Assembly: GCA_003605035.1 (NCBI GenBank) | Contig: QZKJ01000078.1 | Location: 163 to 64,162, forward strand | From: Desulfurivibrio sp. | GTDB lineage: Bacteria; Desulfobacterota; Desulfobulbia; Desulfobulbales; SURF-16 | Direction of reading: 5' to 3' | Length of the DNA stretch: 64,000 nucleotides | Shown here: positions 240 through 40,300 of the stretch, piece after piece | Layout of the letters: every line of letters starts with the position of its first letter | Position numbering within the stretch: position 1 is the first letter of the stretch | Translations under genes and position numbers: made by a program | The notes under the pieces: generated by a model | Told to the model about the DNA's origin: nothing | The model's input: only the letters and a program-made list of their open reading frames with translations | Database searches by the model: none

Positions 240-302
240 TCCACGCCTCAAAAACATCATGTTCAGGCCAATCCGAACCAGGCGGCTTTAGCGCTGCGCT
301 GA

Positions 303-3300
303 TTACCATTCAAGCCATTTGTACTTCCCGGGCTTTGTAGCAAAGGGAAGGTTCTGCTGCTGAATTTCCTTGATCTCACCGGTACTGGTCTGGACAAATA
401 CCTTGGGTCCGGCGCCGGCATCTCCTTCATCGCCGGAACCGACATAAAGACTGGGGGTCATGGCAAGGCCGCGCCCAAGCGACATCTTCGCCTCAACATT
501 GCCAAGGATATCAATACCATAATCTCCAAAAATCCGCTGATGCCATGCGGTGCCGGTCTGATAATACACCCCATAGAGATAGGCCAGCCCCTCGGCGAGG
601 CAGGTATCCTCATATGGTTGATAGGTGGTAAAGGTCAGAAGACCGCCAAGCAGCGTGCCCTGGCCAAGGTTACGCTCACGATTAGTGTACGGATAGAAAT
701 CCCTGTACCAGCCGTCGGCGTAACCATTGTATCCAGCTGCGGTACACGCATAAGCACCGGCGAAATAATCAATCAGGATATTATAGGTACCGCCAGCGGC
801 AACAACACCCGCAGGAAGACAATCCGTTGTTCCGTCCACACAGGACAGCACAAAAGTAAACGGGGATGTTGATTCATGCACCTCGATCTCGTCAACCTTC
901 AACAACCCCATCTCACCGGGCACAGCGCCCGAAGCAGTAAGCTCAATTTCATTCCAGGTAAACGTTCTCAGACTGTTCGTGCAATCCAGAGGATTAACAA
1001 AGGTCATGGGTTCTTTTATGCCATAATAACTCTGCTGGGTGTCATCCGTCTTATCATTGGCATCAAAAAACCGGCCGGTGCCAAAATAGACCCAGAAATT
1101 TTTCCCATCGGTGCCGACTGAAGGAGAAGCGGTAATCGGCTGGGCTGGATGCAACGGATTTCCATCGGCGTCGAGCACATCACTGCTCAAGTCAATCAAT
1201 GTCTTGATTTGCCACTCATAGGGTTCCGTTGCCGGTTCAGATGCTCCAGTGCCATATTCTGATCGGCCAAAGAGATCGAGCTTTCTGGTCACCAGACGGT
1301 ACATCTTGCCGCCGCCGTCCCAGTAAGAACTTGTCGCATCAAAATCCCCTTCGACCGTGCCGAAATATATGGCGTCTGATTTGTAGTTCTCCATGCTTGG
1401 GTTGATGTCAAAATCCACCGTTATCGGGTCTGAAACAAAACCATGCGGCGATCCCGCAAGCTGAAATGTGCCATCCGGAGAGCCGGCGACTGGAGCAGCA
1501 GCACTTATCCGCAAAGACTTTACGGGCAGGTTGTTGCCATCCACCAAATTGTTCAGCGCGACAATGGAAATTCTGGCATCCTGGTCACTCACCCCTTTCA
1601 AGGCGTCACTGCCATGAGGTCCGCTGCCGAGAATGAGATACCATTTATTGACCTCCGGAGCGACGGAGGCGTCTTTCATGATCGACATGGTTGAGACAAC
1701 GGTGGAAAAACCAAGATCAACATAATTAGGAGAATCGGGGACAAGATTGCCATCGCTGTCAGACAGCGTCTGCGTCAACTCGCCAAGCAAAACAGGAGGT
1801 TTTTCGGGGTCCGTTATATCAAGAATAAAATAGGAAGAAATAAACTGCCTGTTGTCTGTGTTGGGTTGTCCCAGATCAGCCGCCGCGTCAACAGGTGCGC
1901 CTCCAAAACGCATGCCCCCGACAAGTATTGTCCCCCAGCCCTGGGGATGGGTACAGGCGGCATCATTATAATCAGCAGTACACGCGGCTTCTTCGCTGAA
2001 AATCTTGACATCGAAGAGCCGGGGTCTGAGATCAACATAATATTTATGTTTAGCGCCGGCATAATCTTTTTCAGTCAGACATTTCAGATGTGGCAGCAGA
2101 TTATACGGGACATACCCCCACATCTCCGCCCCAAGCGCCGGAGCGGCGGCAGCGGCGTCGCTGCAGGTTCCATCGGCGTTTAAGGAAACGAGACAGAACT
2201 TATTGTCTTTTTCGCTGTAGAAACCTCCGTTTACAGCGTGCAGCATCCCGTCATTTGCCCCCATATAGATCATATGCCTTCTGTTTTTGTATCTGGAGAC
2301 GAATTTGGCATACGATTTGTCATTATAAATGAGATGGAACCCTTCAGACGGAGCGGCAACCGTCATAGGAGTCGAGTGAATGATGTCACCAAGCCGCCAG
2401 GAGCTGAGCGTCCCGCTTCCTTCCGCAGCCGGGATCATTCTGTTTCTGACGGGAGATTCAAGCGACCCGTCGCCATCCACATCCTCCCCTGCATCGAGTA
2501 TTCCATTGCCATTGACGTCTTCAAACACATCAAGATGTCCATCGCCATCAAGGTCTTCCCCTGCATCGAGAATCCCATCCCCGTCAATATCCTCCGTGGT
2601 CCAGTCAGCCCCCCGGACCCAGCGGATGATCTGCCGGACTTCATCATTATCTGCGGCACTAAAATCCTTTGCCACCAAACCACGGTTACTCACGCCTAAG
2701 CCGGCCCAATTGATCGCATTTCCTGATCCGTCACGGTCAACAAAGGGCAGAACTTCCGTGGCGTAATCAACATCACCGTCGTTATTGAGATCAACCCAGG
2801 TAAAAATATAACGACGCTGCTCACTGGACAGATATGTGTTTCTATTATAAAAAACATCATTGGCGCCATAGGGAACCGAGGCATCGGCTGAAAGAACCAC
2901 GTTGGAGATTCTGGACAGCCAATCGTTGGCAGACCACAGATATTTTATTGCTGATAATTCCTTTGAATTCGTGCATGCTCCTGTATAGAAAATTGATGTG
3001 TTATAGCAACCCTTTGAACGGTTGGCGCTGGTATCAAAATAGATGATAACACGCTTATCGTCTCCATCTATAACGCCATCACTGTCCTTGTCCTCATAAA
3101 CATCAAGATGCCCGTCACTATCGGTGTCCTCCCCGGCATCCATGATACCGTTTGCATTCACATCCTCATCATTATCGAGTTTTCCATCACCGTCTACGTC
3201 TTCCGAGGGATTCATCATCCGATCGGAATTGGAATCTTCATACATTCTGCCATACTGATCGATGAAAAGGGAATGCACGTCACCAACCCAGTCAACGGCC

Positions 3301-6221
3301 CATTCTACCCCTGTGTTGTCCTGTCTTTTCAACTCAGGCCAGAAAATAGCCTGATAAATGGCGCCCTCACCGCCACGGGCCGATGAAATTACCGAAGCGG
3401 CGGAACCGGCCGAGGCTCTCTGGCGCAACTCATTGAATTTCTCCAGCAGATTTGATTCAAGCTCAGACGGATTGGCACTGACCAGGAGTTCGGTGCCGCC
3501 ATTGGTTGCAGCCGCCTCAATAATTTCATCAGGACTGCATTCGGTGTCACCGACATCTCTTAACGTACCAGTCACCACTATATGGGTGGTGATATTCTTT
3601 TTATCGTACATGGTGCCATCGTCAGAAGGGAGCTGGCTGTTTCCGGCAGGATAAAGAACGCTCGCATCCGCATGCTGGGCAAAATACGTCAGGTCGTCAA
3701 GGTAGGTGCTGCCGTCCAGGCCATCCGTGCATTTCGTATCACTCACCTGGTCACCATCATCAATAGGGGCACTGTTGACAAAATCAATGACATCCTGATT
3801 GATATCAGCAGTGGATGCGCCTTCAGTGATGATCAGCACATGATTTTCCTGACACCAGTTGGTAATGGGGTTTACCGTCGTATCGAAATCATCGACGCTC
3901 AGACGCATGGCCGTATTCTGGGTGTAGTAGCCTATGGCGTTGTACATGGCTTCGGCCAGCGGCGTCCAGGAGGTGGCCTGAATGCTGTTCACCTGTTGAA
4001 CGACATAATCGATATGACTGCCTGGACCGCTTGCCGCCACATCGGTTCCGAGCCTGATGCCGGCCAGGATTTTCGCGCCGTCCTTGTTGTCCGTCGGACA
4101 ATATTCCTGGATCGCGTCACTGGGGTCAACAGTCGTGCACTCGGTAAGGGCGCCCACGGCATTAAAGGCCATGACGCCGATGCGAAGATCCGCAGCAGTT
4201 CCCTGCAGCACCCCTTCAGGCTGCGTGGTCTGTTTCTTGTAACCTTTCATGACGATCAACGACCTGTCACCGCCGAAAAAGGAGGCAACGCCGGAGTCGA
4301 TCAGCACCGCGGGCATACTCCAGAACTCGCCGGTGTCAAAGATCTGATCCGAAGGATCAATGACTTCCGGAATCTCCATATAGCCGCAGTAATCCTCTAC
4401 AGCCTGCTGGATACAGGCATCAGCCGTGTTCGGGTTAAGATCATCCGTCCAATGGGCAGGAGCAGCCGCGGCAATATCAGCAGCGGTACAGGTGCCCGGA
4501 CCAGCTCCATCAGCATCGACGAGCACAAGGACCCAGGCCTTGTTACACTCGTCCTTGTTGCTGTTATAGTTTCCACTGCATTCATAAAGGTATCCATCCG
4601 TTCCACATCGCGGGTCGCCGATGGTCCCGACCGGCGGACCGCAGGAAACCGGCGCACACCCGGCCGGGATGGTGGCCGGCTCCCAGCAGCGCCCGATATA
4701 GCCGTCACGCAGATCATCCGGGATGCCAATGATATAGTCACCCGTGCAGATATAACCACTGCTTTCCGTCGTAATGGTTGCAGGGGGGATGTCGTGATCA
4801 TAGATATGTTCGCAGGAGGTTTTCACATCCGTTATGCCAACAGGAAAGGAGCCATGCTTCGAGTAATACCAGCAGTCATGCAGGGCATGGTTATAGGCGG
4901 CGTTTGACTCGGCCATGATATTGTTGGTCCCGCCGTAGTCAAGACAGTCGGTAATGTCCTGCTTGAGCGCACCCTGATTGACCACATCCTGCTGCAGCTC
5001 CGTAAGAGCGTCCTGGCAGGCTTGATATTGATCGCTGGCAATAAAACTACTGGCACTCAAGGCCAGGATGGAAATTCTGGTTGTGTCGTCTGTGCTGTCG
5101 ATCCAGTTCTCTTCACTCGCCCCCTGGATGGACAGAGTCAAAACCTTTCCATCAGACATGGTCACTTCCTTGAAGAAACCATGATCGGCGCAACCACGGT
5201 TCTGAGAAATAAGCCGCTGGGCGTCCTCATCAAATTTACCGCCGGTAAGAATTTTCTTCTGGATGTCAAATTTGGAAGAGGAGGCCCAGTTCAGAAAATT
5301 TCCTTTTGCTGCAAAAGCCGAAACCCGCGATTGGACATCTGAAGTACCGTCATTTACACTGACAATCTTCACGAAAAGATCGGTATGGCTTGAGGCAGCT
5401 CCCGGTTGAGCAGCAAAAGCAGTCGCGGCGTCGGCACTTGACGCATAAGCGGTTTCTTCGAAATAGCCTTCATCCAACCTGACCCAGTTCACGCCGGCAT
5501 CATCCCAGACGCCGGTGCCGTTTGATGTTCCGGAACTCGTTGCCTTGAAAAGCATGCCGCCATCACTGACAATGTCATTAACACTGTAGGCAGTGGTATT
5601 ACGCCAGGTTGAGTCAACAGAGACCCATGTCACTCCGGTATCTTCATAAATACTAAGACCGTTTGTCAGATCCGAATCACTGGCCGTGCCGCCGGCGACC
5701 GTATAAAAGAGTTGACCATCAAACTGGACGAAACTTTTGGCGGGATACACCTCACTGTGACGCCAGACATCAATGGTATAAACTGATGTCCACGTCACTT
5801 CGCTGTCAAAACCGATCTCAACGCCGGTGGAAGGACTGCCCGTGGCAGCAGTCGCTTTGTAGAAGACCCCCTCTGTATAGACAATATCCCCAACCGCATA
5901 AGTCGCTCCGCTCTTCCATGGCTGAACCCCTTCTGTCCATTTATACCATTTATCTGCCGTGTAATTTCCCGCATACTGGGTTCCTGATGCGTAACTGTTA
6001 TCAACGCACTCACCGGTGTTTGCAACATAAGCCATGTCGAGCATGGAGCCGGAATTATCAATCATCAGCAAAAGATTCGAGCGGACGCCGAAGGAAAGGA
6101 ACGGTGGCTCGCCAAGTCCGATGCCACAGGTATCCGCGTAGGATAAAGTCGGCGGAAGTACATGAATAACCAGTCCGAAGATCAGTAAATCAATGACAAG
6201 ATATCGTAGGAAAAGCCTCAT
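303..6221 (-). CDS. pilY1: giant PilY1-like type IV pilus tip adhesin (vWA-like MIDAS, CBM5/12-like repeats, Ca-binding DxDxDG blocks, C-terminal PilY1/PilC beta-propeller)
   Basis: 1972-aa ORF with an N-terminal hydrophobic signal-like segment. DNSGS MIDAS-type motif at nt 6045..6059. Three W-x5-Y-x2-(G/N)D-I-V...G-x-(F/L)(Y/F)-(K/T)-(A/V) repeats at about nt 5475..5918. Asp-rich blocks at 3056..3203 and 2461..2596. The C-terminal region carries WRLGDIIHSTP...YMGANDGMLHAVNGG...GWGTILVGGMRFGG, typical of PilY1/PilC. It is the last gene of the minor-pilin operon. Confidence 0.85.
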   Translation of the reverse strand: MRLFLRYLVIDLLIFGLVIHVLPPTLSYADTCGIGLGEPPFLSFGVRSNLLLMIDNSGSMLDMAYVANTGECVDNSYASGTQYAGNYTADKWYKWTEGVQPWKSGATYAVGDIVYTEGVFYKATAATGSPSTGVEIGFDSEVTWTSVYTIDVWRHSEVYPAKSFVQFDGQLFYTVAGGTASDSDLTNGLSIYEDTGVTWVSVDSTWRNTTAYSVNDIVSDGGMLFKATSSGTSNGTGVWDDAGVNWVRLDEGYFEETAYASSADAATAFAAQPGAASSHTDLFVKIVSVNDGTSDVQSRVSAFAAKGNFLNWASSSKFDIQKKILTGGKFDEDAQRLISQNRGCADHGFFKEVTMSDGKVLTLSIQGASEENWIDSTDDTTRISILALSASSFIASDQYQACQDALTELQQDVVNQGALKQDITDCLDYGGTNNIMAESNAAYNHALHDCWYYSKHGSFPVGITDVKTSCEHIYDHDIPPATITTESSGYICTGDYIIGIPDDLRDGYIGRCWEPATIPAGCAPVSCGPPVGTIGDPRCGTDGYLYECSGNYNSNKDECNKAWVLVLVDADGAGPGTCTAADIAAAAPAHWTDDLNPNTADACIQQAVEDYCGYMEIPEVIDPSDQIFDTGEFWSMPAVLIDSGVASFFGGDRSLIVMKGYKKQTTQPEGVLQGTAADLRIGVMAFNAVGALTECTTVDPSDAIQEYCPTDNKDGAKILAGIRLGTDVAASGPGSHIDYVVQQVNSIQATSWTPLAEAMYNAIGYYTQNTAMRLSVDDFDTTVNPITNWCQENHVLIITEGASTADINQDVIDFVNSAPIDDGDQVSDTKCTDGLDGSTYLDDLTYFAQHADASVLYPAGNSQLPSDDGTMYDKKNITTHIVVTGTLRDVGDTECSPDEIIEAAATNGGTELLVSANPSELESNLLEKFNELRQRASAGSAASVISSARGGEGAIYQAIFWPELKRQDNTGVEWAVDWVGDVHSLFIDQYGRMYEDSNSDRMMNPSEDVDGDGKLDNDEDVNANGIMDAGEDTDSDGHLDVYEDKDSDGVIDGDDKRVIIYFDTSANRSKGCYNTSIFYTGACTNSKELSAIKYLWSANDWLSRISNVVLSADASVPYGANDVFYNRNTYLSSEQRRYIFTWVDLNNDGDVDYATEVLPFVDRDGSGNAINWAGLGVSNRGLVAKDFSAADNDEVRQIIRWVRGADWTTEDIDGDGILDAGEDLDGDGHLDVFEDVNGNGILDAGEDVDGDGSLESPVRNRMIPAAEGSGTLSSWRLGDIIHSTPMTVAAPSEGFHLIYNDKSYAKFVSRYKNRRHMIYMGANDGMLHAVNGGFYSEKDNKFCLVSLNADGTCSDAAAAAPALGAEMWGYVPYNLLPHLKCLTEKDYAGAKHKYYVDLRPRLFDVKIFSEEAACTADYNDAACTHPQGWGTILVGGMRFGGAPVDAAADLGQPNTDNRQFISSYFILDITDPEKPPVLLGELTQTLSDSDGNLVPDSPNYVDLGFSTVVSTMSIMKDASVAPEVNKWYLILGSGPHGSDALKGVSDQDARISIVALNNLVDGNNLPVKSLRISAAAPVAGSPDGTFQLAGSPHGFVSDPITVDFDINPSMENYKSDAIYFGTVEGDFDATSSYWDGGGKMYRLVTRKLDLFGRSEYGTGASEPATEPYEWQIKTLIDLSSDVLDADGNPLHPAQPITASPSVGTDGKNFWVYFGTGRFFDANDKTDDTQQSYYGIKEPMTFVNPLDCTNSLRTFTWNEIELTASGAVPGEMGLLKVDEIEVHESTSPFTFVLSCVDGTTDCLPAGVVAAGGTYNILIDYFAGAYACTAAGYNGYADGWYRDFYPYTNRERNLGQGTLLGGLLTFTTYQPYEDTCLAEGLAYLYGVYYQTGTAWHQRIFGDYGIDILGNVEAKMSLGRGLAMTPSLYVGSGDEGDAGAGPKVFVQTSTGEIKEIQQQNLPFATKPGKYKWLEW

Positions 6222-6602
6222 ATCTTCACCCTATTGCAAGTAATGGATGGTAATAAACCTGAGAAAATAATTGACGATTTCGCCTAAAGCCACTTACCCG
6301 CAGTGCACCAGTCTAACTTCTTGATATTTCGTCAGGAGATGGTCAGTTTTCGAGCCTTTGCTGATAAAATTCTGCAAAACTAATAACTCAAGCTTCTGAT
6401 TTGTGGTAACATGTTGAAATTAAGCAAATATTTTCAGTCTGCCTGAAGATTATTTCCAGAGAATTCAGAAGCCTGAATAAAACGATATAAAATCAAACAT
6501 TCTGGATTCTGCCTCCTATCTTCGGAATTCCCATGACGGAGTTCAGAGCAGCAACTATGTCACAAAATACCGTGATAAAATAGATCAAGTCAGAAAGTTG
6601 AG

Positions 6603-7283
6603 CTAATAATTACAATCACCAGTCCAACCGACGGGAAAACGCCAGCCAAGCTGGATAATTGACCGGCTATCCACTCGTCCCTGATGAAGAGCGGTTACCT
6701 CATACAGTTTCAACACGCCGCCGCCGGCAGCGGATTTACCCTTCCCTTCATAGCCAGCGGCCATCTGTAACGCACCACCCGCCGCCATTTCAGTCCGACC
6801 GCCGATGTAAATATAAGAGACCCTCTGCGACCCGGCGGCATCCAGATCATCAAGATTTAACGTCGGGTCAACGGGCAAGGTGAACGAAACATCATTGAGA
6901 GCGTGGGCGTTGATATCGGCCTCGATAACGTTTTCGGCAAGGGAGGGATTTTGATACAACGCCAGTTCATTGCCATTGCGCTCGTAAACACGCACGACAC
7001 CTTCCAGATCGGCAACCGAGATACCACCGTCATCTGCCCCTGTTGATGAAAAACCCGTCGGGCAGTACAGATTCTGTTCAAGAACCTCCACGCCAACTGA
7101 AAGGCTGCCTTCCGCATTGTAAAAAGTCTCTTTGTGGACTTTCTCATTGCCCGCTATCTGCACCTCAATCGTCGTATTGGTTGTTGCCGCGACTCCGATA
7201 ATCACCAGAATCAGGAGAATAAGCAAGGAGGCGATCAGGACGAAGCCTCGCTCATTTTTTGCTATATTTTTCAGATGTATCAT
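6603..7283 (-). CDS. pilX: PilX-like type IV pilus minor pilin/assembly protein
   Basis: 226 aa. N-terminus MIHLKNIAKNERGFVLIASLLILLILVIIGVAA resembles the PilX N-terminal hydrophobic helix. Positioned between pilV and pilY1. Confidence 0.7.
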   Translation of the reverse strand: MIHLKNIAKNERGFVLIASLLILLILVIIGVAATTNTTIEVQIAGNEKVHKETFYNAEGSLSVGVEVLEQNLYCPTGFSSTGADDGGISVADLEGVVRVYERNGNELALYQNPSLAENVIEADINAHALNDVSFTLPVDPTLNLDDLDAAGSQRVSYIYIGGRTEMAAGGALQMAAGYEGKGKSAAGGGVLKLYEVTALHQGRVDSRSIIQLGWRFPVGWTGDCNY

Positions 7284-7290
7284 CGGGAAT

Positions 7291-7788
7291 TTATATGGAA
7301 TTTGATTTCATATAGGCCATGGTGACGGTACGTATCGTTCCGCCATCCTGCCTTTCAATAATTACATTAACCGTCTTGATATCAGGGAAAGGATAGTTCA
7401 CCGCAACATTCCAGTTAATTGTGTAATTACCGTCCGGAGAGGCTGATGTCCCATCCGCATTCGCACCGGTATCATCAAGACCGAAGTTGCCCCCGTCATC
7501 ATCTGTGCCGTCATTATTCGCATCCTCCCCAGTACCATCGCCGTCATCGTCATCAAGATCGGCGTCAGAATAGTTGAGCCCGATGAGCGTTTCGATGCGG
7601 TCGGATGCCCAAGACGATGACTCCGTTATCCTGTTCGCCGATGAATTGCCTTTTATGGCTGCTGTCTGCATGGCATTGACCGCCAGAATGCCGATGGTAA
7701 AAATAGCAACGGCAATCAAGACCTCGATGAGGGTAAAACCTGATTGACGGGAAGTCGCTATGGCCTGGGAAAAATTTCTCATGATCAC
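7291..7788 (-). CDS. pilV: PilV-like minor pilin (prepilin-type N-terminal cleavage/methylation domain)
   Basis: 165 aa. Leader ...SRQSG|FTLIEVLIAVAIF matches the class III signal (G/FTLIE). 4-nt ATGA overlap with pilW. Contains an Asp-rich DxDxDG insert. Confidence 0.8.
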   Translation of the reverse strand: MIMRNFSQAIATSRQSGFTLIEVLIAVAIFTIGILAVNAMQTAAIKGNSSANRITESSSWASDRIETLIGLNYSDADLDDDDGDGTGEDANNDGTDDDGGNFGLDDTGANADGTSASPDGNYTINWNVAVNYPFPDIKTVNVIIERQDGGTIRTVTMAYMKSNSI

Positions 7789-8405
7789 AAACCCATATTT
7801 CTGCAGTTGACCCTTTGGATCAACAGACGACGGCGAAGATAATCATTATAAGGCCCCCAAATTGTTCCTGAAAATGAAGCATATTGTTTCGAATTAAGAA
7901 AATTGGCATCAGAACCGCCAGCCCGGGCCAGAATCGAGATGACCACACTGCGAACTTCCTCAACGTCCGCGGTAACCGCATCGTCTTCATCAAGATATAC
8001 AAATTCAAGTTCTTCAATGTTCTGGGCGATGGGTTGAGTATTTCTTGTAATTTCCTTTTCTACAGTATCCAGAGCATAGGTAATATTTTCTCCAGAGTCG
8101 ACGACATCATCATCCTCATTGAGATCCATGCTAAAATTAATACTGGACGCAGTGATGGCAAGCAAAGCGGCTCCGGCTTTTCCTGTTGAATCATATCCTG
8201 CCATTTTTATCTCCCTGGTCATCATATCAAGTCCGGCACGGATATTCTGCTGCATTTCCGCAACCTGATCCTGAGCGGTATAACTGTTCTGCTGGGACTG
8301 AAACGCTGAATAAATTGAGGCTATAACAATACCGGAAATCAGCATGGTGATCAGTAATTCAATGAGGGTAAAACCCCTCTGCATATCTTCAACATGGGTT
8401 CTCAT
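7785..8405 (-). CDS. pilW: PilW-like minor pilin
   Basis: 206 aa. MRTHVEDMQRG|FTLIELLITMLISG prepilin motif. Gene order is GspH-like, W, V, X, Y1. Confidence 0.8.
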   Translation of the reverse strand: MRTHVEDMQRGFTLIELLITMLISGIVIASIYSAFQSQQNSYTAQDQVAEMQQNIRAGLDMMTREIKMAGYDSTGKAGAALLAITASSINFSMDLNEDDDVVDSGENITYALDTVEKEITRNTQPIAQNIEELEFVYLDEDDAVTADVEEVRSVVISILARAGGSDANFLNSKQYASFSGTIWGPYNDYLRRRLLIQRVNCRNMGL

Positions 8406-8451: not shown

Positions 8452-8976
8452 TTATAACCTTTCCAAGGTCAAACCACCTGCAAGGGAAAGTGAAATCTGG
8501 TAACGTACATTATCATCGTTCCTCACTTGCACGTTACCAATTCGACTGCTCAACGGCAGCCCCCGCGCAGTAAAACCAGGAGTAGTGCTGCCTAAAGAAA
8601 AATTTACGCTATCCAGATCAACACTGGCAGGCATAGTGACATTGGCCAGAATTCTTTCATCCCCATTTTGCGTATCATCATCCGCGGTTCCGGTTGTTCC
8701 TCCATTATCAACAAAAACCTGATACGTTTCCGCACCGGCGTTAAAAGAGAGCACCACATTGCTGTTGGTTTTAATGGCCTCAATCCGGGCTTTCTGAAAA
8801 TTCGTATAAATCTCGCGGGCTGCTGCCTTGAGGCGATAATTGGCGATCCACTGAGAATAATTAGGTATCGCAATGGCCATCAGAACACCCATTATGGCCA
8901 TGACCACAATAAGCTCGACTGTCGTGAAGCCCTGACTGTTTCGATGCAATTTTGTTACTCGCTGGCGATATTTCAT
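8452..8976 (-). CDS. GspH/FimT/FimU-family minor pilin
   Basis: The ORF track extends to 9087, but the internal ATG at 8976 gives MKYRQRVTKLHRNSQG|FTTVELIVVMAIMG, a normal prepilin leader. First gene of the operon. Confidence 0.7.
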   Translation of the reverse strand: MKYRQRVTKLHRNSQGFTTVELIVVMAIMGVLMAIAIPNYSQWIANYRLKAAAREIYTNFQKARIEAIKTNSNVVLSFNAGAETYQVFVDNGGTTGTADDDTQNGDERILANVTMPASVDLDSVNFSLGSTTPGFTARGLPLSSRIGNVQVRNDDNVRYQISLSLAGGLTLERL

Positions 8977-9578
8977 GTTAAATTTTTTTTGTGGATTGCA
9001 TACCGCGTTTTCAAAATGCACAAATCGTACCTCCATGCAGCACACATAATTAGATGAAACAGCTTTTCCCATTTGATTGTCAAGCAAAAAGAAATACTTG
9101 CAAAATCAATGAGTCAGCCTGAATTTTCAAGAAAATTTCCTTTCCAATCGCCTCACCAGGGCGCAACTATAAAAAAAGTTTATCACGGTTGCCTGGCAAG
9201 CTACTAACAAAAAATTTTACCAGAGTAAGGGGTTGAAAAAGATTCACGGTCACGAGTACTTGACAAAAAACTGAGTGAGGGATGGCTATAATTCTTCAGA
9301 AAAACTACTGAAATTGCATGCAATTCCAAACAAAAGAATTTTCTGCTGGAAATGCTTTTTGCGTCTTCATGAGAAAAATGGACCCAACAATTTCCGTCTA
9401 AAAAATCTGCTCGAGTTATAATGAGTTACTGCAGTTCCTTGAAAGCTGTTGCTAGATTTTTTTAACGTCAACCCGGCCACAATGCTAAAAAAAATTAACA
9501 GTTTTTTTTGATGAAACAAATACAAATAAATGAAGGAAAAGCGGATACAGCAATCTGACAATAACAGGTAACGAATAT

Positions 9579-9834: not shown

Positions 9835-10302
9835 TCAGGGTCGCACCGCCCGGACAAATCCTTGTTTCGCTTTGACATACTTAAATTCATTTCCTCCGCA
9901 GAGAGGATATGATTCCCACCTGCCGGCATTTACCTCCTGTGATGGACTGACGCTCCAGTAATTATAATTATTGCCAAGCTTCATCATACAGTCGTTGTCC
10001 CCCAGCGCAGCAAGATAATGCAGCATATAAAGCTCTTTTCTTGTCGGCAACCGCCAATCGCCATACCCACCCAGGTTCAACCTTTCCGCATACTCCCTTG
10101 CTTCCTGCCAGGTGGAATACCTGGGGCTTTTATCAATCTGCCACAGCAGACCGTTATTGCTCTGCCGGCAGACCCCGTTGCCGAGATCAACCAACCCGGC
10201 TTGACGCTCTGCCGCAGGGGATGACCGATTTTGACCTGCGCCGGCACAAGCTGCCAGAATTGACAGCAGGAGAATCAACACAATGGATTTCGTTGCAGGC
10301 AT
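9835..10302 (-). CDS. DUF1566 (Lcl C-terminal domain)-like lipoprotein
   Basis: The internal ATG at 10302 gives MPATKSIVLILLLSILAAC (lipobox LAAC). LLWQIDKS...TWQEAREYAERLNLGGYGDWRLPTRKELYML matches the DUF1566 signature. Confidence 0.7.
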   Translation of the reverse strand: MPATKSIVLILLLSILAACAGAGQNRSSPAAERQAGLVDLGNGVCRQSNNGLLWQIDKSPRYSTWQEAREYAERLNLGGYGDWRLPTRKELYMLHYLAALGDNDCMMKLGNNYNYWSVSPSQEVNAGRWESYPLCGGNEFKYVKAKQGFVRAVRP

Positions 10303-10344
10303 ATGCTCCCCTGTACACCGGCCAACCACTTCACTTTCCAACAA

Positions 10345-10848
10345 TCAGGCCACATTGTAATGATTGTAGCACACTTCAACCTGCAGAGGGAAATCCCCAT
10401 ATCTTTCCCCGCAAATTTTCCCATTAATCACATAAACAACCCCGGCCTGGTTATCCATTACCTTGAAATGACGCAGATATTCCTGGATGGAGACCATGCC
10501 CTGATCATAAAAATAAGTGGAAGCCAGAAAAAAGGCCGGGATGACCACACTGGCATTGTGCCGTAAAGTGACGGAGATGCTGACCATGCGACTCCGCATA
10601 TTGCCGATCAGTTCATTGCCGCTGAAGAGCAATATCTTCCAGGAGGAATTATTGGTGAGCTGCACATGGGGCACACCAGCAAAATGATCCACCTGGACAA
10701 CCTCGACCAATCCCTGAGCAAAAGCCTCGTCATATGGCAGCAATGCCTTATCGTCGTTAAGGATTATCGTGTTTTCAGCACTGTTAAAAAAACTGATTAC
10801 CGGCAGCAGTTCCGGTGTTTCTGTCCATGCCTGCATGATTCTTCCCAT
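10345..10848 (-). CDS. hypothetical protein, divergent ARPP-1/DUF6569-like
   Basis: ATG at 10848 is preceded by GGAGG with a 5-nt spacer. The pattern YDEAFAQGLVEVVQV..AGVPHVQLTNNSSWKILLFSGNELIGNMRSRMVSISVTL...VIPAFF parallels the ARPP-1 core (ldEAl..G.v.i.Ev...G.V..l.v.N....pvLll.GeeLvGakQNR.ln.sill....t..iPVsCvE), but QNR and CvE are not conserved. Confidence 0.45.
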   Translation of the reverse strand: MGRIMQAWTETPELLPVISFFNSAENTIILNDDKALLPYDEAFAQGLVEVVQVDHFAGVPHVQLTNNSSWKILLFSGNELIGNMRSRMVSISVTLRHNASVVIPAFFLASTYFYDQGMVSIQEYLRHFKVMDNQAGVVYVINGKICGERYGDFPLQVEVCYNHYNVA

Positions 10849-10940
10849 GATACCCTCCACTTTTTTATTTTTCTTGCATTCCTTCACCTTTTCTCTCACC
10901 ATACAGACAGAGGTAGGACAGATAGTGTCCGACCAGCTCA

Positions 10941-11960
10941 ATGAAAGAAAAAAAAATGCAAAAATTCAAACCGCAACACAGCCGTCTGCTCTTTATCGAC
11001 AAGAAGATCAGGGACAGAACCTATCCGAACTGCACATCACTGGCCGAGGAATGGGAAGTCAGCGCAAAAACGATCCAGCGTGATCTGGATTACATGCGGG
11101 CCATGCTTGACGCCCCCATGGCCTATGACGCCGGAAAGCGCGGCTACTACTATACGGAAGAGAGCTTTCACCTGCCGGCAATCGTCTTGACCGACAGCGA
11201 TCTCTTTGCCGTGTTCATTGCGGAAAAGGTCCTCCAGCAGTATGAAAACACGCCGATTTACCCCAGACTGCAATCTCTTTTCGCCAGGATTGCCGAATCC
11301 CTGCCGGACAAAATCACCATTGACCCGGCCCAGTTACATGACAGATTCTCCTTTTTCAGCAGCCCCCACAGCATGATAGCGACACAGGTATGGGAAACCG
11401 TCTTCACTGCCCTGCGCACCTCGCAATCCCTGCACATCAGCCATGCCAAACCGGGCGCAACCGATCTCGCGCAACGCACGATCGATCCCTACCATGTGGT
11501 CAATTACCAGGGGGAATGGTATGTGATTGCTTTCTGCCAGGCACGCCACGATATCCGCACCTTTGCCCTCTCCCGCATTGACAAGGCGCAGTTAGCCGGC
11601 GAGCATTTCACGGTTCCCGCGGATTTTGATTTTCAACAAACAACCCGGGATCGTTTTGGTATACAATGGAGTGATAAGCAGTATGCTGTCAGGATATGGT
11701 TTTCACCGGCGGCAGCGCCCTACATCCGGGAAAGGCAATGGCACCAGGGCCAGCAGATTCAGGAAAACAGCGATAAAAGCATTATGATGACGTTTACCGC
11801 GAGCCATCTGCTGGAGATTAAAAAATGGGTGCTCTCCTGGGGCTGTATGGCCCGGGTTCTCGCGCCCCGTACCCTGGCAGACGACATACGAAGAGAGCTT
11901 GCCTCAGCAATGGGAAATTATGGAGGAAATGATGAAGAAAGAGCTCATCAAACTGGTTGA
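10941..11960 (+). CDS. HTH-WYL-WCX transcriptional regulator (YafY/CapW/BrxR-like architecture)
   Basis: 339 aa. N-terminal HTH ([39 protein letters not shown]). WYL core [35 protein letters not shown]-like C-terminal domain. The start could instead be the ATG at 10956. Confidence 0.85.
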
Positions 11961-34119: not shown

Positions 34120-36222
34120 TCAGGGCGATTTGGGGAACAACTGCATCCAGAAGGGATTGACTCCCTGCCTGGCCAGCAGATACCAGGCGGTTGCCCCGAT
34201 ATGCAGCCGCCGGGGATAGGTCCACTGCCCTGACCACTCACCGATCTCTTTCATAAAACCCGTCTCGGCCTTATCCGGGCAGGAGGCCTGGATGCCCGTG
34301 CCCCGGCCGCTGCCCGGCTGGATCTCAGCGGCAAAAACCGGACCGGCCAGAGAGCTGAGGATCTGCTCGGCCGGCTCCCTGCTGCCGAGAAAGTTGTAGA
34401 CCGCCGCCACCTGGGCCGTGCCCTCAGCCCAGATCCCGCTGCCCTCCCGGCTGAACCGGTAACCACGGGAGCCGGCGCAGGCGGGGTGGGGCTGCACTTC
34501 CCGCACATTATCTTCAAGCCAGCGGATGGGGGCCGGCAGCGCGGCATCATCCTGCCAGCCGATGACCCGGCGAAACTCGGGGTCATGGCCCATGGCCAGC
34601 AGGCTCCAGGTCTGCACATCCAGCGGGACCACCTCCCGGTTGACCGTGCCTTCGAGATCAATGGCGCCTGCCAGAAAATGCCCCTGCTCAGGGTCATACA
34701 TCTTCAGGACAAAGCTGCGGGCGTGCCTGGCCCGCTCAAGCCAGACCGGATCATTGGTGAGATCGGCCAACTGCATGAAGGCAACAAAGAGATCGATGTT
34801 ATGCTCGGTGCTGCGCCACAGTAAACGCTGCGGCCCGCTGCCGCTGGCGTCGTTCCCCCAGCCGTCAAAGCCGCCGCTGTAGCCGCCGCCTTTGCCTGTC
34901 AGGACATCAGGACTGGCGGCCATCTCCTCAATCCGGCAATTGCGCTCAATCCACTCCGCCCCCTGCAGGGCTGCATGCAGGTAATGATGCTCCCGGCCCG
35001 GCAGCGAATACTTGCGATGGGCGGCCAGCAGGGAGATGACGGCCCAGGCCATATTGCCCGTATCCGTACTGACCTGGTAGCGGTCCTCCACCCAGGCGGC
35101 CACGGCGCTGCCTGACCCGTCACCGGCCGGAACCTGCCACCAGCCGGGCAAACGGGCCGGGTCCGCGGCAAGCAGATCGATCGGCACGGCCAGGTAGGCG
35201 TTGCGCCACCTGCCGTCCCGGTAATAGCGGTCATGATTCTGCAGCCAGACCAGGGTATCGGCCAGGATTTTCCCCCGCCTGGCGCTGTCCGGGTCCCCTT
35301 TGGCCAGATAGGCCAGCAGAGCCAGGGCATTGTCATAAAGAAAGGCGGCATTGCGCAGTGATTTGTCCTCGTCGGCCATGGTTGCCCGGTATGATCTGAC
35401 CAGCCGCAGCATGTTCGGGTCCGCGTTGTTGTATCTGACATCATCAAGATAAACGGTGGCGCCCTGACGATTTTTGCCGGCATCAAAGTAGATGGAAAAC
35501 CCGCCGATTACCCCGGTGAGGTTTGAGCCTGGCGGGATAACAAGCTTAAACGGCTGCCAGCTGGTGGTCAGCTTCAACAGTTTCGGTTCGTATTTCAACA
35601 GGGTCAGGGTATCACGGTGCGGCAGGCCGGCATCGCCCTCCTCATTCACCCCGCCGGCCTCGATCCTGACCAGCTCACCGCCGACCTTGCCGCGGATCCA
35701 GCCGGTCAGCTCGGTGGCCCCCACCAGGACCCGGCCATGCCGTTCCCCCCAGTTACCGCCGCTTACATTGGGATAGACCCAGGTCACTCCGGCCCAGCCT
35801 CTTTTTTTCGCCGGCTGATAGGTGATACGCAGGCAGGTTTTGCCGGCAAAGGGGCTATCCCAGCTGTCAGGGGCCAGGGTAAGATCCTTCACATCACCCG
35901 ACCAGTTGACGGGATAAAAACCGGCGGCCCCGCTGTCATACTCGTCATAAACCACCGTGCCATCGGTCAGGCGGTCCATCTCCCGGGCCAGATAGCCATA
36001 GAGGGCGTCAAGCTGGACCGGCGGGACGGTGCTCGGGGTCGCGACTGTTTCGCTGGTTGGAGCTGGGGAAAGGATTGTTTCCTGCTGCCCGGCTTCCTGG
36101 GCAAGCAGGCTGCCGCCCAGGCCGGCCAGAGGCGGAGAAAAAAGGCAGAGGATGATGAGGGCCTGCAGGAGGCGGGTTGGCGACGGTAAAAGGAGTCGAA
36201 ACGCAGCGGATAATTTTTTCAT
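34120..36222 (-). CDS. secreted protein with probable (alpha/alpha)6 six-hairpin glycosidase-like C-terminal domain
   Basis: ATG at 36222 gives MKKLSAAFRLLLPS...LCLF (signal). Motifs such as RNAAFLYDNALALLAYLAKGDPDSARRGKILADTLVWLQ resemble six-hairpin/GH-like toroid repeats. The function is not established. Confidence 0.5.
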   Translation of the reverse strand: MKKLSAAFRLLLPSPTRLLQALIILCLFSPPLAGLGGSLLAQEAGQQETILSPAPTSETVATPSTVPPVQLDALYGYLAREMDRLTDGTVVYDEYDSGAAGFYPVNWSGDVKDLTLAPDSWDSPFAGKTCLRITYQPAKKRGWAGVTWVYPNVSGGNWGERHGRVLVGATELTGWIRGKVGGELVRIEAGGVNEEGDAGLPHRDTLTLLKYEPKLLKLTTSWQPFKLVIPPGSNLTGVIGGFSIYFDAGKNRQGATVYLDDVRYNNADPNMLRLVRSYRATMADEDKSLRNAAFLYDNALALLAYLAKGDPDSARRGKILADTLVWLQNHDRYYRDGRWRNAYLAVPIDLLAADPARLPGWWQVPAGDGSGSAVAAWVEDRYQVSTDTGNMAWAVISLLAAHRKYSLPGREHHYLHAALQGAEWIERNCRIEEMAASPDVLTGKGGGYSGGFDGWGNDASGSGPQRLLWRSTEHNIDLFVAFMQLADLTNDPVWLERARHARSFVLKMYDPEQGHFLAGAIDLEGTVNREVVPLDVQTWSLLAMGHDPEFRRVIGWQDDAALPAPIRWLEDNVREVQPHPACAGSRGYRFSREGSGIWAEGTAQVAAVYNFLGSREPAEQILSSLAGPVFAAEIQPGSGRGTGIQASCPDKAETGFMKEIGEWSGQWTYPRRLHIGATAWYLLARQGVNPFWMQLFPKSP

Positions 36223-36468
36223 TTTTTTATTCTCGGTGCGGGATATTGGGCAATAGGCCAGGAGTGGCAAGGGTCGGAGCGAATTGAGGCATGATTTCCG
36301 GTTCGAGATTTTTTCATCAATGATTGAAACGAAATTTGTCTGGTTCCCCTGCATTCCTGGTGCTCAACTAACAATCATATGGTTTCCAGATAACTATCAC
36401 ATCCTAAAAAGATTGCCAAACGATATTGTCAGAGCTGCTGTTTTTCTGCCTCTTGCTACCTCCCAATC

Positions 36469-36748: not shown

Positions 36749-37372
36749 ATGAGCCGCCGCGAAACCACCAAACTTGAGACCCGGCAACTGATCCTGGAGG
36801 CTGCCCGCAAACTTTTTCACCGCAGGGGGCCCGAGTTGTGCACCATGCGGGACATTGCCAGGGAGGCCGGGGTGTCGCCGGCCTCGGTGGTGGTCCACTT
36901 CAAAAACAAGACCGCCCTGCTGGAAGTGGCCCTGTATGAAGACATTGAACAGACCATTGCCAAGGCAGTTGCCACCATGCCGCAGGCGGGGGCCTCCCTG
37001 CATGGGCGGCTCATGCACATCGCCCGCTGCATGTATGGTTTTTATGATAACGACCGCGAGCTCTACCGGGTGCTGATTCGCGATACGACATTTGAGAAGG
37101 CAGGGGAAAACCCCTATCTGACCAGGCAACTGCAGGAGTATCTGCAGTTTTTCGGGGCCCTCATCGAACAGGAAAAGGAACGGGGCAAGGTACGGCCTGG
37201 TGCGGATGCCCGAATTGCCGCCTCCTCGCTTTTTTCCCTCTATTTCAGTGTACTCATGGAGTTTCTGCGCAGTCCCGACCTGACCCCGGACATGGCGCTC
37301 GGCTGGCTTTCGGAAGCAGTACGCCAGCATTTGACCGGCATTGTGCCGCCGGAAGGAGACAAGGGTAAATGA
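36749..37372 (+). CDS. TetR/AcrR-family transcriptional regulator
   Basis: 207 aa. RQLILEAARKLFHRRGPELCTMRDIAREAGVSPASVVVHFKNKTALL is a canonical TetR HTH. ATGA overlap with the RND gene. Confidence 0.9.
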   Translation: MSRRETTKLETRQLILEAARKLFHRRGPELCTMRDIAREAGVSPASVVVHFKNKTALLEVALYEDIEQTIAKAVATMPQAGASLHGRLMHIARCMYGFYDNDRELYRVLIRDTTFEKAGENPYLTRQLQEYLQFFGALIEQEKERGKVRPGADARIAASSLFSLYFSVLMEFLRSPDLTPDMALGWLSEAVRQHLTGIVPPEGDKGK

Positions 37373-40300
37373 CCGCGGTCCATAAAAAATTCGAAAACTG
37401 GTTCGCCCGGCTCGCGGCCCTGGTTTACCGGCACCCCTATGCAGCCCTGCTCTTTATTTTTCTGTTGACCGCCGCCCTGGCCGGCCAGATGGCAAAACTC
37501 ACCATCGATACCCGAGATGAAAGTTTTTTCGGCGAAGATGACCCGGCCCTGATCGCCTACAACGGTTTCCGGGACACCTTCGGCCAGGATGACATGTTCA
37601 TCATCTCCATGCGCCCCCACCATGGCCTGACCCGGGATTTTCTTGCCACGCTGACTGAACTGCACCACCAACTGGAGGCAAAGGTCCCCTATCTTGCCGA
37701 CATCACCAGTCTGGTCAACGGCCGCATCGTCTACGGCCAGGGCGACACCCTGGTGGTCGACGAACTGATGACAGAGCCGCCCCGGACAGAGGCGGAACGA
37801 GAGCTGCTGCTTGCCCAGATCGACCGTTATCCGCTCTATGAAAAGCTGCTGGTCTCCACAGACAGGTCCATGACCTCAATCCTCATCAAGGCCCAGGCGA
37901 TCAAGCCGGTGGCGGAAAAGGATCTGCTGGCCGGCTTTGCCGATGATGCCCCGTCCCCAGCCCCGGCAGCGCACCGCTACCTCAGCAATGAGGAGAGCAT
38001 CGAAATCTCCCGGGCGATCAGCCAGGTGGTGGCCGGCTTCCAGGGCCGGGGCATCGACTTTCATCTGAGCGGCACCCCTTTGGTGGTGGCCGAACTGACC
38101 AGCACTATTAATGATGATCTGCGCACCATGGTGCCGCTCTCCTTTCTGCTCATCGTCCTGTTTCTTGCCGTGTTGTTCCGCCGCATCTCCGGGGTGCTCT
38201 ATCCCCTGCTGATCGTGTTGCTGTCGCTGATTGCCACCCTGGGACTCATGGGCCTGTGCCGCATCCCCATCACCATGGTCATGCAGATCCTGCCCTCCTT
38301 TCTGGTGGTAGTTGGCATCGGCGACAGCGTGCACATTCTGACCATTTTCTACCGCCTGTATCGCCGGAGCGGCGACAAGGAGCAGGCCATTGTCCAGGCC
38401 ATGGGCTTTGCCGGCCTGCCGGTGCTGATGACCAGCGTTACCACCGCCTGCGGTCTGCTCTCCTTTGCCTGGGCTGATCTGAACAATGTGGCCCAGCTCG
38501 GTTACATGGCGCCGGCAGGGGTGATGCTGGCCCTGCTCTATACCGTGATGCTGCTGCCGGCGCTGATCGCCATCTTCCCGATCAGCCCGGGCCGCGATGC
38601 CGCAGCCGCACGGCTGCCCCTGGCCGACCGGATTTTTACCTGGATCGCCGCGGTCACCACCCGGCGGCCGCTGCTGATATGCCTTATCTCTGCCATCATG
38701 GTCAGTCTCGCCCTGTGGAGCGCGCTTTCCGTCAGGTTTGCCCATAACGCCCTCACCTGGTTCCCCCGGGACTCTCCCACCCGGGTGGCCACTGAACTGC
38801 TGGATCGGGTCAACGGCGGTACAGTCATGCTTGAGGCGCTGGTGGATACGGGCCGGGAAACCGGACTGCATGAACCTGACCTGCAGCGCCGCCTGAGCGA
38901 GGCGGCCCAGACCATCCCGACCCTGGAGGCCCATGGCATCCGGGCGGCCAAGGCCTGGTCCCTGGCCGATGTGCTGAAAGAAACCAACCGGGCCCTGCAT
39001 GAGGGCCGGGATGAGGCTTACCGGGTGCCCGAGAGCCGTGAGCTGATCGCCCAGGAACTCATTCTCTTTGAATCGGGCGGCAGCGACGACCTGGAGGATG
39101 TCGCGGACAGCACCTATCAGACCGGACGCCTCTCCATCCTGGCCCCGTGGACCGATGCGGTTCTGTACAAGGATTACATTGACCGGGTCTCAGAGTATCT
39201 GGCCAGCCAGTTTCCCCATGAGCAGGTGCGGCTCACCGGCCACATCGTCCTGTTCATGCAGATCATTAAAAAGGTCATCACCAGCATGGCCAAGAGCTAT
39301 GCCTTTGCCCTGGTGGTGATCTCGCTGCTCATGGTGCTGCTGGTGGGCCGGGTGCGCATCGGCCTGCTCAGCATGATTCCCAATGTGGTGCCGATCATTT
39401 TTATCCTGGGGCTGATGGGCCGGCTCGCTATCCCCCTGGACCTGAGCACCATGCTGATCGGCAGCATTGTCCTGGGTCTGGTGGTGGATGACACCATCCA
39501 CTTTCTGCACCATTTCCGCCGGGCCTTTGAGGAGAGCGGCGAGGTGGAAACCGCAGTGCGCGAGACCATGCTCACCACCGGCCGGGCCATGGTGATCACC
39601 AGCATCGTGCTGTGCGGCGGTTTCTTCATCTACACCACCGCTTATCTGGCCAGCAGCGTGCGTTACGGCCTGCTCACCGGCAGCGCGGTGCTCTTTGCCC
39701 TGGCCGCCGATTTCTTCCTGGTGCCGGCCCTGCTCAGTCTGGTCAGTCTGAATAGCCCTACTGGTCCGACCAGTCGGACCAGCAAGACCGTTCCCATCAT
39801 CTTTTTATTATGCCTGCTGCCGATACTGGCCCACGCCGGAAACGATGCTAACCGGGCCAGATCCATCATGCAACAGGTGGACGCCCGGGACGACGGGGAC
39901 CACTCCATTGCCGACATGCAGATGCTTCTCATCGACCGACACGGCAGGAAACGCAGCCGCACCATCCGTTCCTTCGGCCTGGACCGGGGCAAGGACCGCT
40001 GCAATCTGATGTTCTTCCTCGCCCCGGCCGATGTCAAGGATACCGGCTTTCTCACCTATGACTACGATGAGGGGGGTAAAGACGATGACCAGTGGCTCTA
40101 TCTGCCGGCCCTGAAAAAAACCAAACGCATTGCGGCAAGCGACCGGAGCGGCAGTTTCATGGGTTCTGATTTCAGCTATGCCGATCTGACCAAACGGCGG
40201 CTCGACGATTACACCTACTCATTCAACCAGGAACAGCGGGAGGCCAGGGTGTACGGGCAACAGACCTGGGTTATCGATTCCCTGCCGGCCAATACCAGAG

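Follow-up and report, generated by a model that had tools for sequence, protein, structure and literature searches.

Gene content of the locus

We analysed a 64,000-nucleotide (nt) stretch of contig QZKJ01000078.1 from Desulfurivibrio sp., referred to below as the window, and focused on a reverse-strand gene near its start that encodes a 1972-residue protein of the PilY1/PilC family. Its product is 100% identical to the deposited "hypothetical protein C4531_11670 [Desulfurivibrio sp.]", whose source is a metagenome-assembled genome. The open reading frame (ORF) is intact, and both its ATG start and its length match those given in an earlier reading of the same DNA from its letters alone (hereafter the sequence-only reading). 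That reading had also named the protein PilY1, and the setting of the gene agrees: four minor-pilin genes lie directly upstream on the same strand, and pilY1 is the last gene of a fimU-pilV-pilW-pilX-pilY1 operon (Table 1). The product is probably an adhesin and priming factor of PilY1 type, associated with the tip of a type IVa pilus, and the bacterium a Desulfurivibrio-like member of the Desulfobulbales. The consensus scan that found a hairpin beyond the pilY1 stop codon returned 16 terminator-like sites against 10.0 ± 3.8 expected and is weak evidence for that hairpin.

Table 1. Features of the pilY1-type gene, its encoded product and the adjoining minor-pilin genes, with positions in the window.
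Feature	Residues	Position	Strand	Basis
pilY1-type gene		303..6221	-	Intact ORF, ATG start, 1972 aa
Predicted Sec signal peptide	1-29	6135..6221	-	Sequence reading (hydrophobic helix 2-19, then ...SYA|D) and AlphaFold2 helix
Predicted vWA strand beta1 and MIDAS-type loop LLLMIDNSGS	49-59	6045..6077	-	Model strand 49-54; conservation
CBM5/12-type module 1	98-148	5778..5930	-	Pfam CBM_5_12 E 2.4e-5; hhalign to modules 2 and 3, probability at least 98.6%
CBM5/12-type module 2, divergent	149-202	5616..5777	-	hhalign to modules 1 and 3, probability 98.6-98.7%, E 9e-16 and 2e-16
CBM5/12-type module 3	203-250	5472..5615	-	Pfam CBM_5_12 E 5.8e-4
Helices (NFLNWASSSKFDIQKKILTG), probable vWA helix alpha1	307-326	5244..5303	-	Model helices 307-314 and 317-326; invariant motif
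Second predicted vWA insertion	330-655	4257..5234	-	Beta-sheet unit, helical bundle 397-475, Cys-rich region
Predicted vWA core, strands beta2-beta6 and helices	656-935	3417..4256	-	Foldseek; T753 (SWTPLAEA), E800 (IITEGAST)
Putative Ca-loop array 1	1008-1055	3057..3200	-	Four head-to-tail 12-residue EF-hand-type loops
Conserved folded mid domain	1056-1210	2592..3056	-	Between the arrays; pLDDT about 79-92
Putative Ca-loop array 2	1211-1253	2463..2591	-	Three full loops and one degenerate loop
PilY1 C-terminal beta-propeller	about 1262-1972	306..2438	-	Pfam, 3HX6 sequence match, Foldseek
Terminator-like hairpin and T-run		261..278	-	About 25 nt past the pilY1 stop codon; consensus scan only
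pilX-like minor pilin gene		6603..7283	-	Pfam PilX_N E 1.9e-9; same gene order in D. ganghwensis
Minor pilin gene with N-terminal methylation motif		7291..7788	-	Pfam N_methyl E 1.1e-9
pilW-like minor pilin gene		7785..8405	-	N_methyl E 5e-9; PilW E 1.6e-4, under the Pfam cut-off
fimU/gspH-like minor pilin gene		8452..9087	-	Pfam GspH E 2.2e-10; N_methyl E 8.9e-7

The C-terminal propeller

Membership of the protein in the PilY1/PilC family (PF05567) is secure. Pfam T4P_PilY1 matched with an E-value of 2.4e-11 and a score of 43.7 bits (cut-off 28.1). Queried as a single sequence, the protein had one match in the PDB, Pseudomonas aeruginosa PilY1 (3HX6, E-value of 5.5e-8), which was also the top match of the family profile (E-value of 9e-14). 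The AlphaFold2 model of residues 940-1972 reached a predicted local distance difference test score (pLDDT) of 82 and a predicted template modelling score (pTM) of 0.87, and Foldseek aligned it to 3HX6 with an E-value of 2.6e-16 and a template modelling (TM) score of 0.64, normalised by the target. The next PDB folds were semaphorins and plexins, with E-values above 5e-4. Sequence match, profile and fold all back the canonical PilY1/PilC C-terminal domain named in the sequence-only reading. An NCBIfam search with the 1972-aa protein gave no match.

A predicted vWA fold split by two insertions

By prediction, the N-terminal half folds into a single compact unit based on a split von Willebrand factor A (vWA) fold. 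The AlphaFold2 model of residues 1-960 (pLDDT 80.9, pTM 0.81) has strands at 49-54, 680-686, 716-724, 793-799, 877-884 and 913-915 that alternate with helices in a six-stranded, Rossmann-like order. Besides carbohydrate-binding modules (CBMs) and phage fibres, its top Foldseek matches were vWA domains only. These included vWF-A3 (1ATZ, probability 1.00, TM(target) 0.52), BatB (3IBS, probability 0.99), the integrin alpha1 I domain (4A0Q, TM 0.50), TFIIH p44 and the Gram-positive pilus tip adhesin SpaC (probability 0.96), with TM scores of 0.47-0.52 for 3IBS, 1AO3, 4A0Q and 5IVW. The match to GBS104 (3TXA) was weak (probability 0.35, E-value of 0.088). A split vWA domain is supported at fold level, and this agrees with the literature, where about a third of published PilY1 proteins have an N-terminal vWA with a metal-ion-dependent adhesion site (MIDAS) (PMC13190605).

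In the predicted arrangement, two insertions would part the MIDAS strand, with D55-x-S57-x-S59, from T753 and E800. In the first, three CBM5/12-type modules would follow immediately on the MIDAS loop, between beta1 and the helices at 307-326, which are probably vWA helix alpha1. The second would be a Cys-rich segment of about 330 residues. Across 63 family members, T753 and G801 never vary, and the conservation of D55, N56, S57, G58, S59, M60 and E800 is 90% or higher; one homolog has TDG in the place of TEG. Around the 307-326 helices, N311, W312, S316, K317, D319, K322, L325, T326, G327, G328 and K329 are invariant. The second insertion (330-655) holds about 15 invariant Cys; it had no Pfam match, and the model search, which returned CBM and vWA folds only, gave it no PDB fold match.

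The sequence-only reading had proposed that a DNSGS motif of MIDAS type is completed by a late vWA strand, HVLIITEGAST, about 740 residues further on. Both motifs are where it put them, DNSGS at residues 55-59 (nt 6045-6059) and HVLIITEGAST at residues 794-804 (nt 3810-3842), 739 residues after DNSGS. Several results nevertheless speak against the vWA assignment. All Foldseek E-values for vWA domains were weak (above 0.001, about 5e-3), the last MIDAS position is Glu, not Asp, in most members, and strand 49-54 was assigned to the sheet from strand order, not from coordinates. No vWA profile in Pfam matched the whole protein. A family profile of 13 members with both insertions spliced out found no vWA in the PDB, the same spliced members matched Pfam VWA_2 in only three cases (best E-value of 0.13), and six shorter, distant homologs from Nitrospira, Geobacter, Geomonas and Deferribacter had no vWA profile match. 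The proposed split vWA is consistent with a confident predicted fold and a conserved motif, and it failed every sequence-profile test.

Between the vWA and the C-terminal half lies a near-invariant linker motif, RASAGSAASVISSxRxGEG (residues 935-953, window 3363-3419), whose pLDDT is low in either model. The motif might serve as an interaction strand, perhaps in beta-strand complementation with a minor pilin; such complementation has been predicted between PilX and PilY1 (PMC13190605).

CBM5/12-type modules beside the MIDAS loop

That residues 98-250 belong to the CBM5/12 fold family is established. The three repeats of about 52 aa noted in the sequence-only reading start at W102, W153 and W206, with spacings of 51 and 53 aa, and they are mutually homologous: hhalign comparison of per-repeat profiles, each built from about 60 homologs, gave probabilities of 98.6-98.9% and E-values of 1e-15 to 1e-17. 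Over the whole protein, Pfam CBM_5_12 scored 29.7 bits (cut-off 26.2), with repeats 1 and 3 contributing. Repeat 2 had no Pfam match by itself; in the family profile it aligns to the second CBM12 of a chitooligosaccharide deacetylase (COD), and it is a diverged copy of the same module.

Solved structures lead to the same family, as the sequence-only reading had anticipated for residues 90-250. The family profile matched the tandem CBM12 pair of Vibrio CODs (E-value of 6.3e-6) and, at residues 198-252, the chitin-binding domain (ChBD) of Pyrococcus furiosus chitinase (2RTS). With a profile of 32 repeat copies, the E-values were 3.4e-8 for the Vibrio COD CBM12, 3.1e-5 for 2RTS, 0.002 for the Bacillus circulans ChiA1 ChBD (1ED7) and 0.005 for chitinase 4TX8. 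Weaker matches were to Agrobacterium phage tail spike and fibre proteins (E-values of 0.01 and 0.016). Foldseek with the model of residues 1-960 found the COD CBMs with a probability of about 1, together with numerous baseplate and tail proteins of phages that carry a chitin-binding type 3 annotation. Receptor-binding proteins of phage tail fibres and baseplates often have CBM5/12-type modules in tandem.

Our first guess for the ligand is chitin, another crystalline polysaccharide or a cell-surface glycan. It is also possible, if on the unlikely side, that the same PilY1 scaffold carries modules that are not polysaccharide binders, serving as a rigid spacer or stalk or binding a non-glycan target, for instance a protein or, with relevance to a sulfur-cycling host, elemental sulfur or an iron mineral. 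Several observations favour this alternative and weigh against a polysaccharide ligand. The matches to solved CBM5/12 structures cover only profile positions 2-35 of 51, the N-terminal two-thirds, and the Pfam match to repeat 1 already ends at profile position 27 of 44. The C-terminal part of the module, SxGxxIxxDTGVxW, is peculiar to this PilY1 family. The segment after YxA is without aromatics in all three repeats (listed as KATAAT, YTVAGG and KATSSG); we take this to be the place of the chitin-stacking aromatic pair of classical CBM5/12 modules, which is apparently absent here. Among the genes of the window, moreover, nothing points to chitin use. Against the alternative, the nearest solved relatives are all chitin-active or phage receptor-binding proteins, the first W, the Y and the terminal W are invariant over the 32 repeat copies, and the position beside the MIDAS loop suggests a ligand-contacting role.

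Arrays of EF-hand-type loops around a conserved mid domain

The two Asp-rich blocks of the sequence-only reading were found as two arrays at fixed positions either side of the mid domain in 62 aligned homologs. Their loop pattern, D-x-[DN]-x-[DN]-G-x-[ILVM]-D-x-x-[ED], is the canonical EF-hand loop register, and seven strict 12-mer loops are present where 0.0018 are expected (5000 shuffles). The arrays have a period of 36 nt, with units 61-73% identical, a mean column identity of 70% and Tandem Repeats Finder (TRF) matches of 63%; the near-identical nucleotide stretches that had been reported in the blocks are not borne out. The mid domain is 123-170 aa long in all 62 homologs, had no Pfam match and has one conserved EF-type loop of its own, DLNNDGDVD (residues 1144-1152, nt 2766-2792).

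The sequence-only reading had called the blocks thrombospondin-type-3-like. The dense DxDxDG loops of calcium type stand, but the family label was rejected: TSP_3 (PF02412) reached an E-value of only 2.3 on array 2 and had no match on array 1, and both arrays are free of cysteine. The term is acceptable only as a functional analogy to a calcium wire, not as family membership.

Other results count against calcium binding. The best profile matches were sub-threshold, namely EF-hand_1 (E-value of 0.0066, 16.4 bits against a cut-off of 25.4, array 2) and FG-GAP, and putative Ca2+ binding by the arrays is motif-based only. P. aeruginosa PilY1 has two functional Ca sites (600-608 and 851-859), through which pilus dynamics and the binding of ligands are modulated (PMC3248442). 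Mapping the propeller site (851-859) onto our protein by sequence failed, as positions 171-324 of the 3HX6 chain were left unaligned. A candidate for that site, VDFDINPSMENYKSDAIYFGT, is conserved in the family as V-D-x-D-I-(8-17 aa)-Y-K-x-D-A-V-Y-F-G-T (also written VDFDINPS..YKSDAIYFGT), but it carries an insertion of 8-17 residues.

A rather unlikely alternative is that the arrays are fast-evolving linkers, acidic and of low complexity, that determine how far the head reaches, or non-specific cation or mineral binders, and not regulated calcium sensors. Their variability would suit such a role. The array 1 site spans 22-96 aa with 0-6 loops and the array 2 site 15-66 aa with 0-4 loops among the 62 homologs, and in the closest relative (P0002, 74% identical) array 2 is missing, with 15 aa at the site. 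In other homologs the loop count rises to 22-27, sometimes at other positions. AlphaFold2 modelled the arrays as low-confidence coil without helices (pLDDT about 50-57 for array 1), which is, however, what would be expected of loops that need ions to fold. The EF register (positions 1, 3, 5, G6, hydrophobic 8, D9 and E12) is kept even though DNA identity between units has fallen to about 70%, which argues for selection on a Ca-coordinating, metal-binding pattern and not on mere acidity.

Distribution and variation of the family

A word-indexed search found 282 homologs, 120 of them listed; colinear homologs of 1600-2470 aa run to hundreds in the Desulfobulbales, isolate genomes and Ca. Electrothrix included. 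The listed homologs are 1516-2468 aa long and, where named at all, are called "pilus assembly protein" or "PilC/PilY family". Their sources include Desulfopila, Desulfosediminicola, Desulfoprunum, Desulforhopalus, Thiovibrio, "Desulfobulbus sp. F1" and many metagenome-assembled genomes of Desulfobulbaceae. About half of those listed have precomputed CBM_5_12 matches, and most carry PF28373 (PilY1_homolog_dom), an accession mentioned in no searchable paper. The sequence-only reading had described the protein as unusually large; it is so next to characterised PilY1/PilC proteins, but its length is normal for its own clade.

An exhaustive HMMER search with residues 1-960 returned 673 clusters at 50% identity, 274 of them at E-values of 1e-30 or below. 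Many of these clusters are without the first ~250 residues, and so without CBMs, or without the insertion at 300-600. Among species-representative genomes, full-length N-terminal matches were found in Desulfocapsa, Desulfogranum, Desulfopila and Ca. Electrothrix, and shorter, more distant versions in Geobacter/Geomonas, Nitrospirota and others.

Modules are shuffled within the family, as seen in P0107, P0117, P0010 and three further spliced homologs. Some members have an extra CBM5/12-like unit just ahead of vWA strand beta4. P0107 has about 20 DxDxDG loops within its N-terminal half, and the maximum in one protein is 27. In Desulfosediminicola ganghwensis, a second protein with a PilY1_homolog_dom (CP050699.1, L001 17577-19826; 1646 aa) is encoded 5 kb downstream of the CBM-bearing PilY1, with a sigma54 response-regulator/histidine-kinase pair between them. 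Two family members, P0050 and P0086, are each listed for D. ganghwensis with a longest contig of 5,653,142 bp, as would be expected if one chromosome carried both. Tip-protein paralogs that differ at the N-terminus are apparently common in the clade.

Operon setting and integrity of the gene

The order fimU-pilW-pilin-pilX-pilY1 is kept in the complete genome of D. ganghwensis and in the closest relative. The spacer between pilX and pilY1 (6222-6602) differs in length, from 381 nt here to about 229 nt in the closest relative and about 50 nt in D. ganghwensis. In our window it is AT-rich (G+C fraction about 0.42) and non-coding. Rfam found no family anywhere in the window, this spacer included, and no sequence similarity to the spacer was found in 81 related loci. 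The spacer may contain a separate promoter or a region with a regulatory role.

A promoter of its own, made possible by the 381-nt gap to pilX, would also suit an adhesin that has the PilY1 propeller fold and no association with a pilus, being either freely secreted or located in the outer membrane. We consider this very improbable: the order with the four minor-pilin genes is kept in distant relatives, and the propeller is specifically PilY1-like, its nearest other folds lying far behind 3HX6. An origin of the long ORF as an artefact of assembly or annotation, either as a chimera joined at repeats or as two fused genes, is effectively refuted: although the source is a metagenome-assembled genome and the ORF holds internal repeats, unit identities of 61-73% at the DNA level remove the worry of repeat-mediated mis-assembly, colinear homologs of at most 74% identity span 100% of the 1972-aa length, such full-length homologs occur in complete isolate genomes and independent assemblies (Desulfosediminicola, Desulfopila sp. 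IMCC35008 and Ca. Electrothrix YB6), and the models of both halves have high pTM.

Other genes in the window

The remaining genes of the window form an ordinary chromosomal context. Adjoining the pilin operon, an Lcl_C-domain ORF (9835-10344, reverse strand) and an ARPP-1-domain ORF (10345-10941, reverse strand) are divergent from a WYL/WCX/HTH regulator (10941-11960, forward strand), so that 9835-11960 looks like a small WYL-controlled module. Further along, 37369-40590 (forward strand) encodes a 1073-aa MMPL/RND-type transporter fused to a C-terminal LolA_like domain (E-value of 7e-48), and a 744-aa ORF at 34120-36354 (reverse strand) had no Pfam match at an E-value of 1e-5 or below.

Comparison with known proteins

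The closest characterised counterpart, P. aeruginosa PilY1 (PA4554; 3HX6), shares the homologous C-terminal propeller and a fimU-pilVWX-type operon. It has a vWA-type N-terminus with MIDAS and many cysteines, and EF-hand-like Ca sites, one of them just upstream of the propeller (PMC3248442, PMC13190605); our cysteine-rich protein has predicted or putative counterparts of these. The Desulfurivibrio protein differs in being about 800 residues longer and in having its predicted vWA split by three CBM5/12-type modules and the Cys-rich insertion. Its EF-type loops number 7-8 and are contiguous within two arrays, whereas P. aeruginosa PilY1 has two isolated 9-residue sites. It also lacks an RGD motif, and the region of the propeller Ca site cannot be aligned.

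In Myxococcus xanthus, PilY1.1 and PilY1.2 have an N-terminus of the sugar-binding type DUF4114 and PilY1.3 has a vWA; there, as here, a constant propeller is combined with a swappable N-terminal adhesion module. Cysteine content is high in both, with 34 in the Desulfurivibrio protein against medians of 17-41 in myxobacterial clades (PMC13190605). Unlike in M. xanthus, its glycan-type module is CBM5/12, not DUF4114, and is combined with a predicted vWA in one protein. The CBM12 pair of Vibrio COD (4NZ1, 3WX7, 8YH4) and the ChBD of ChiA1 (1ED7) resemble our modules in profile and fold and in the tandem arrangement, but those modules belong to enzymes and not to a pilus adhesin, and the C-terminal third is specific to the PilY1 family.

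For the arrays, the nearest parallels are thrombospondin type 3 calcium wires and EF-hand loops, with which they share contiguous DxDxDGxxDxxE/D units that would be expected to hold one Ca2+ per loop, and a fit to the EF-hand consensus at positions 1, 3, 5, 6, 8, 9 and 12. In contrast to thrombospondin type 3 they have neither cysteines nor disulfides, and in contrast to EF-hands they have no flanking helices, are not helix-loop-helix and stay below the Pfam threshold. SpaC (6M48) and GBS104 (3TXA) present a vWA/MIDAS with inserted arms at a pilus tip, comparable with the arrangement predicted here; they belong to an unrelated, sortase-assembled pilus system and serve as an analogy only.

Proposed role at the pilus tip

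The polysaccharide- or surface-binding, Ca-tuned pilus tip that the sequence-only reading had proposed is partly supported. In the tip-adhesin reading that we favour, the propeller would dock on the minor-pilin complex at the tip of the pilus, and the vWA/MIDAS head and CBM-type modules would together attach multivalently to a solid surface or a glycan one. The loop arrays would fold and stiffen upon Ca2+ binding. The linkage between head and anchor, and perhaps pilus extension and retraction, would thereby become calcium-dependent, which we propose by parallel with P. aeruginosa PilY1, whose two single Ca sites act likewise (PMC3248442).

A bolder version, which we think improbable, takes the helix-less EF-loop arrays as a calcium-set "tendon" around a hinge domain. 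Occupancy and loop number would tune its stiffness and reach, and the CBMs at the MIDAS loop would couple contact with a crystalline surface to the vWA, making a tunable mechanosensory tip.

Significance

The targets to which a type IV pilus adheres, and the way in which contact is sensed by the cell, are determined by PilY1 proteins. According to a 2026 survey, no N-terminal domains beyond vWFA and DUF4114 have been identified in published PilY1/PilC proteins (PMC13190605). In the searchable literature we found no description of a PilY1 with a chitin-binding domain, and no paper that pairs PilY1 with Desulfobulbaceae, cable bacteria or Desulfurivibrio. The module set described here is typical of its clade and undescribed in the searchable PilY1 literature. 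Automated pipelines already tag the separate parts, so that we see here a protein of known kind in an architecture not yet described, and not a new system; its function is predicted. The insight is at the level of annotation and demonstrates no new principle.

Two new building blocks are added to PilY1, CBM5/12-type modules embedded in a predicted vWA and variable arrays of EF-type putative calcium loops. The family is widespread in Desulfobulbales, including cable bacteria and the sulfide-oxidising or disproportionating Desulfurivibrio. Attachment to particles, minerals or partner cells is of central ecological importance to these organisms and has hardly been studied. The variation in array copy number offers a natural series on linker length, Ca2+ and pilus-tip mechanics. 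If true, the calcium-tendon proposal would represent a new, tunable design of mechanosensory tip in sediment sulfur bacteria, cable bacteria among them.

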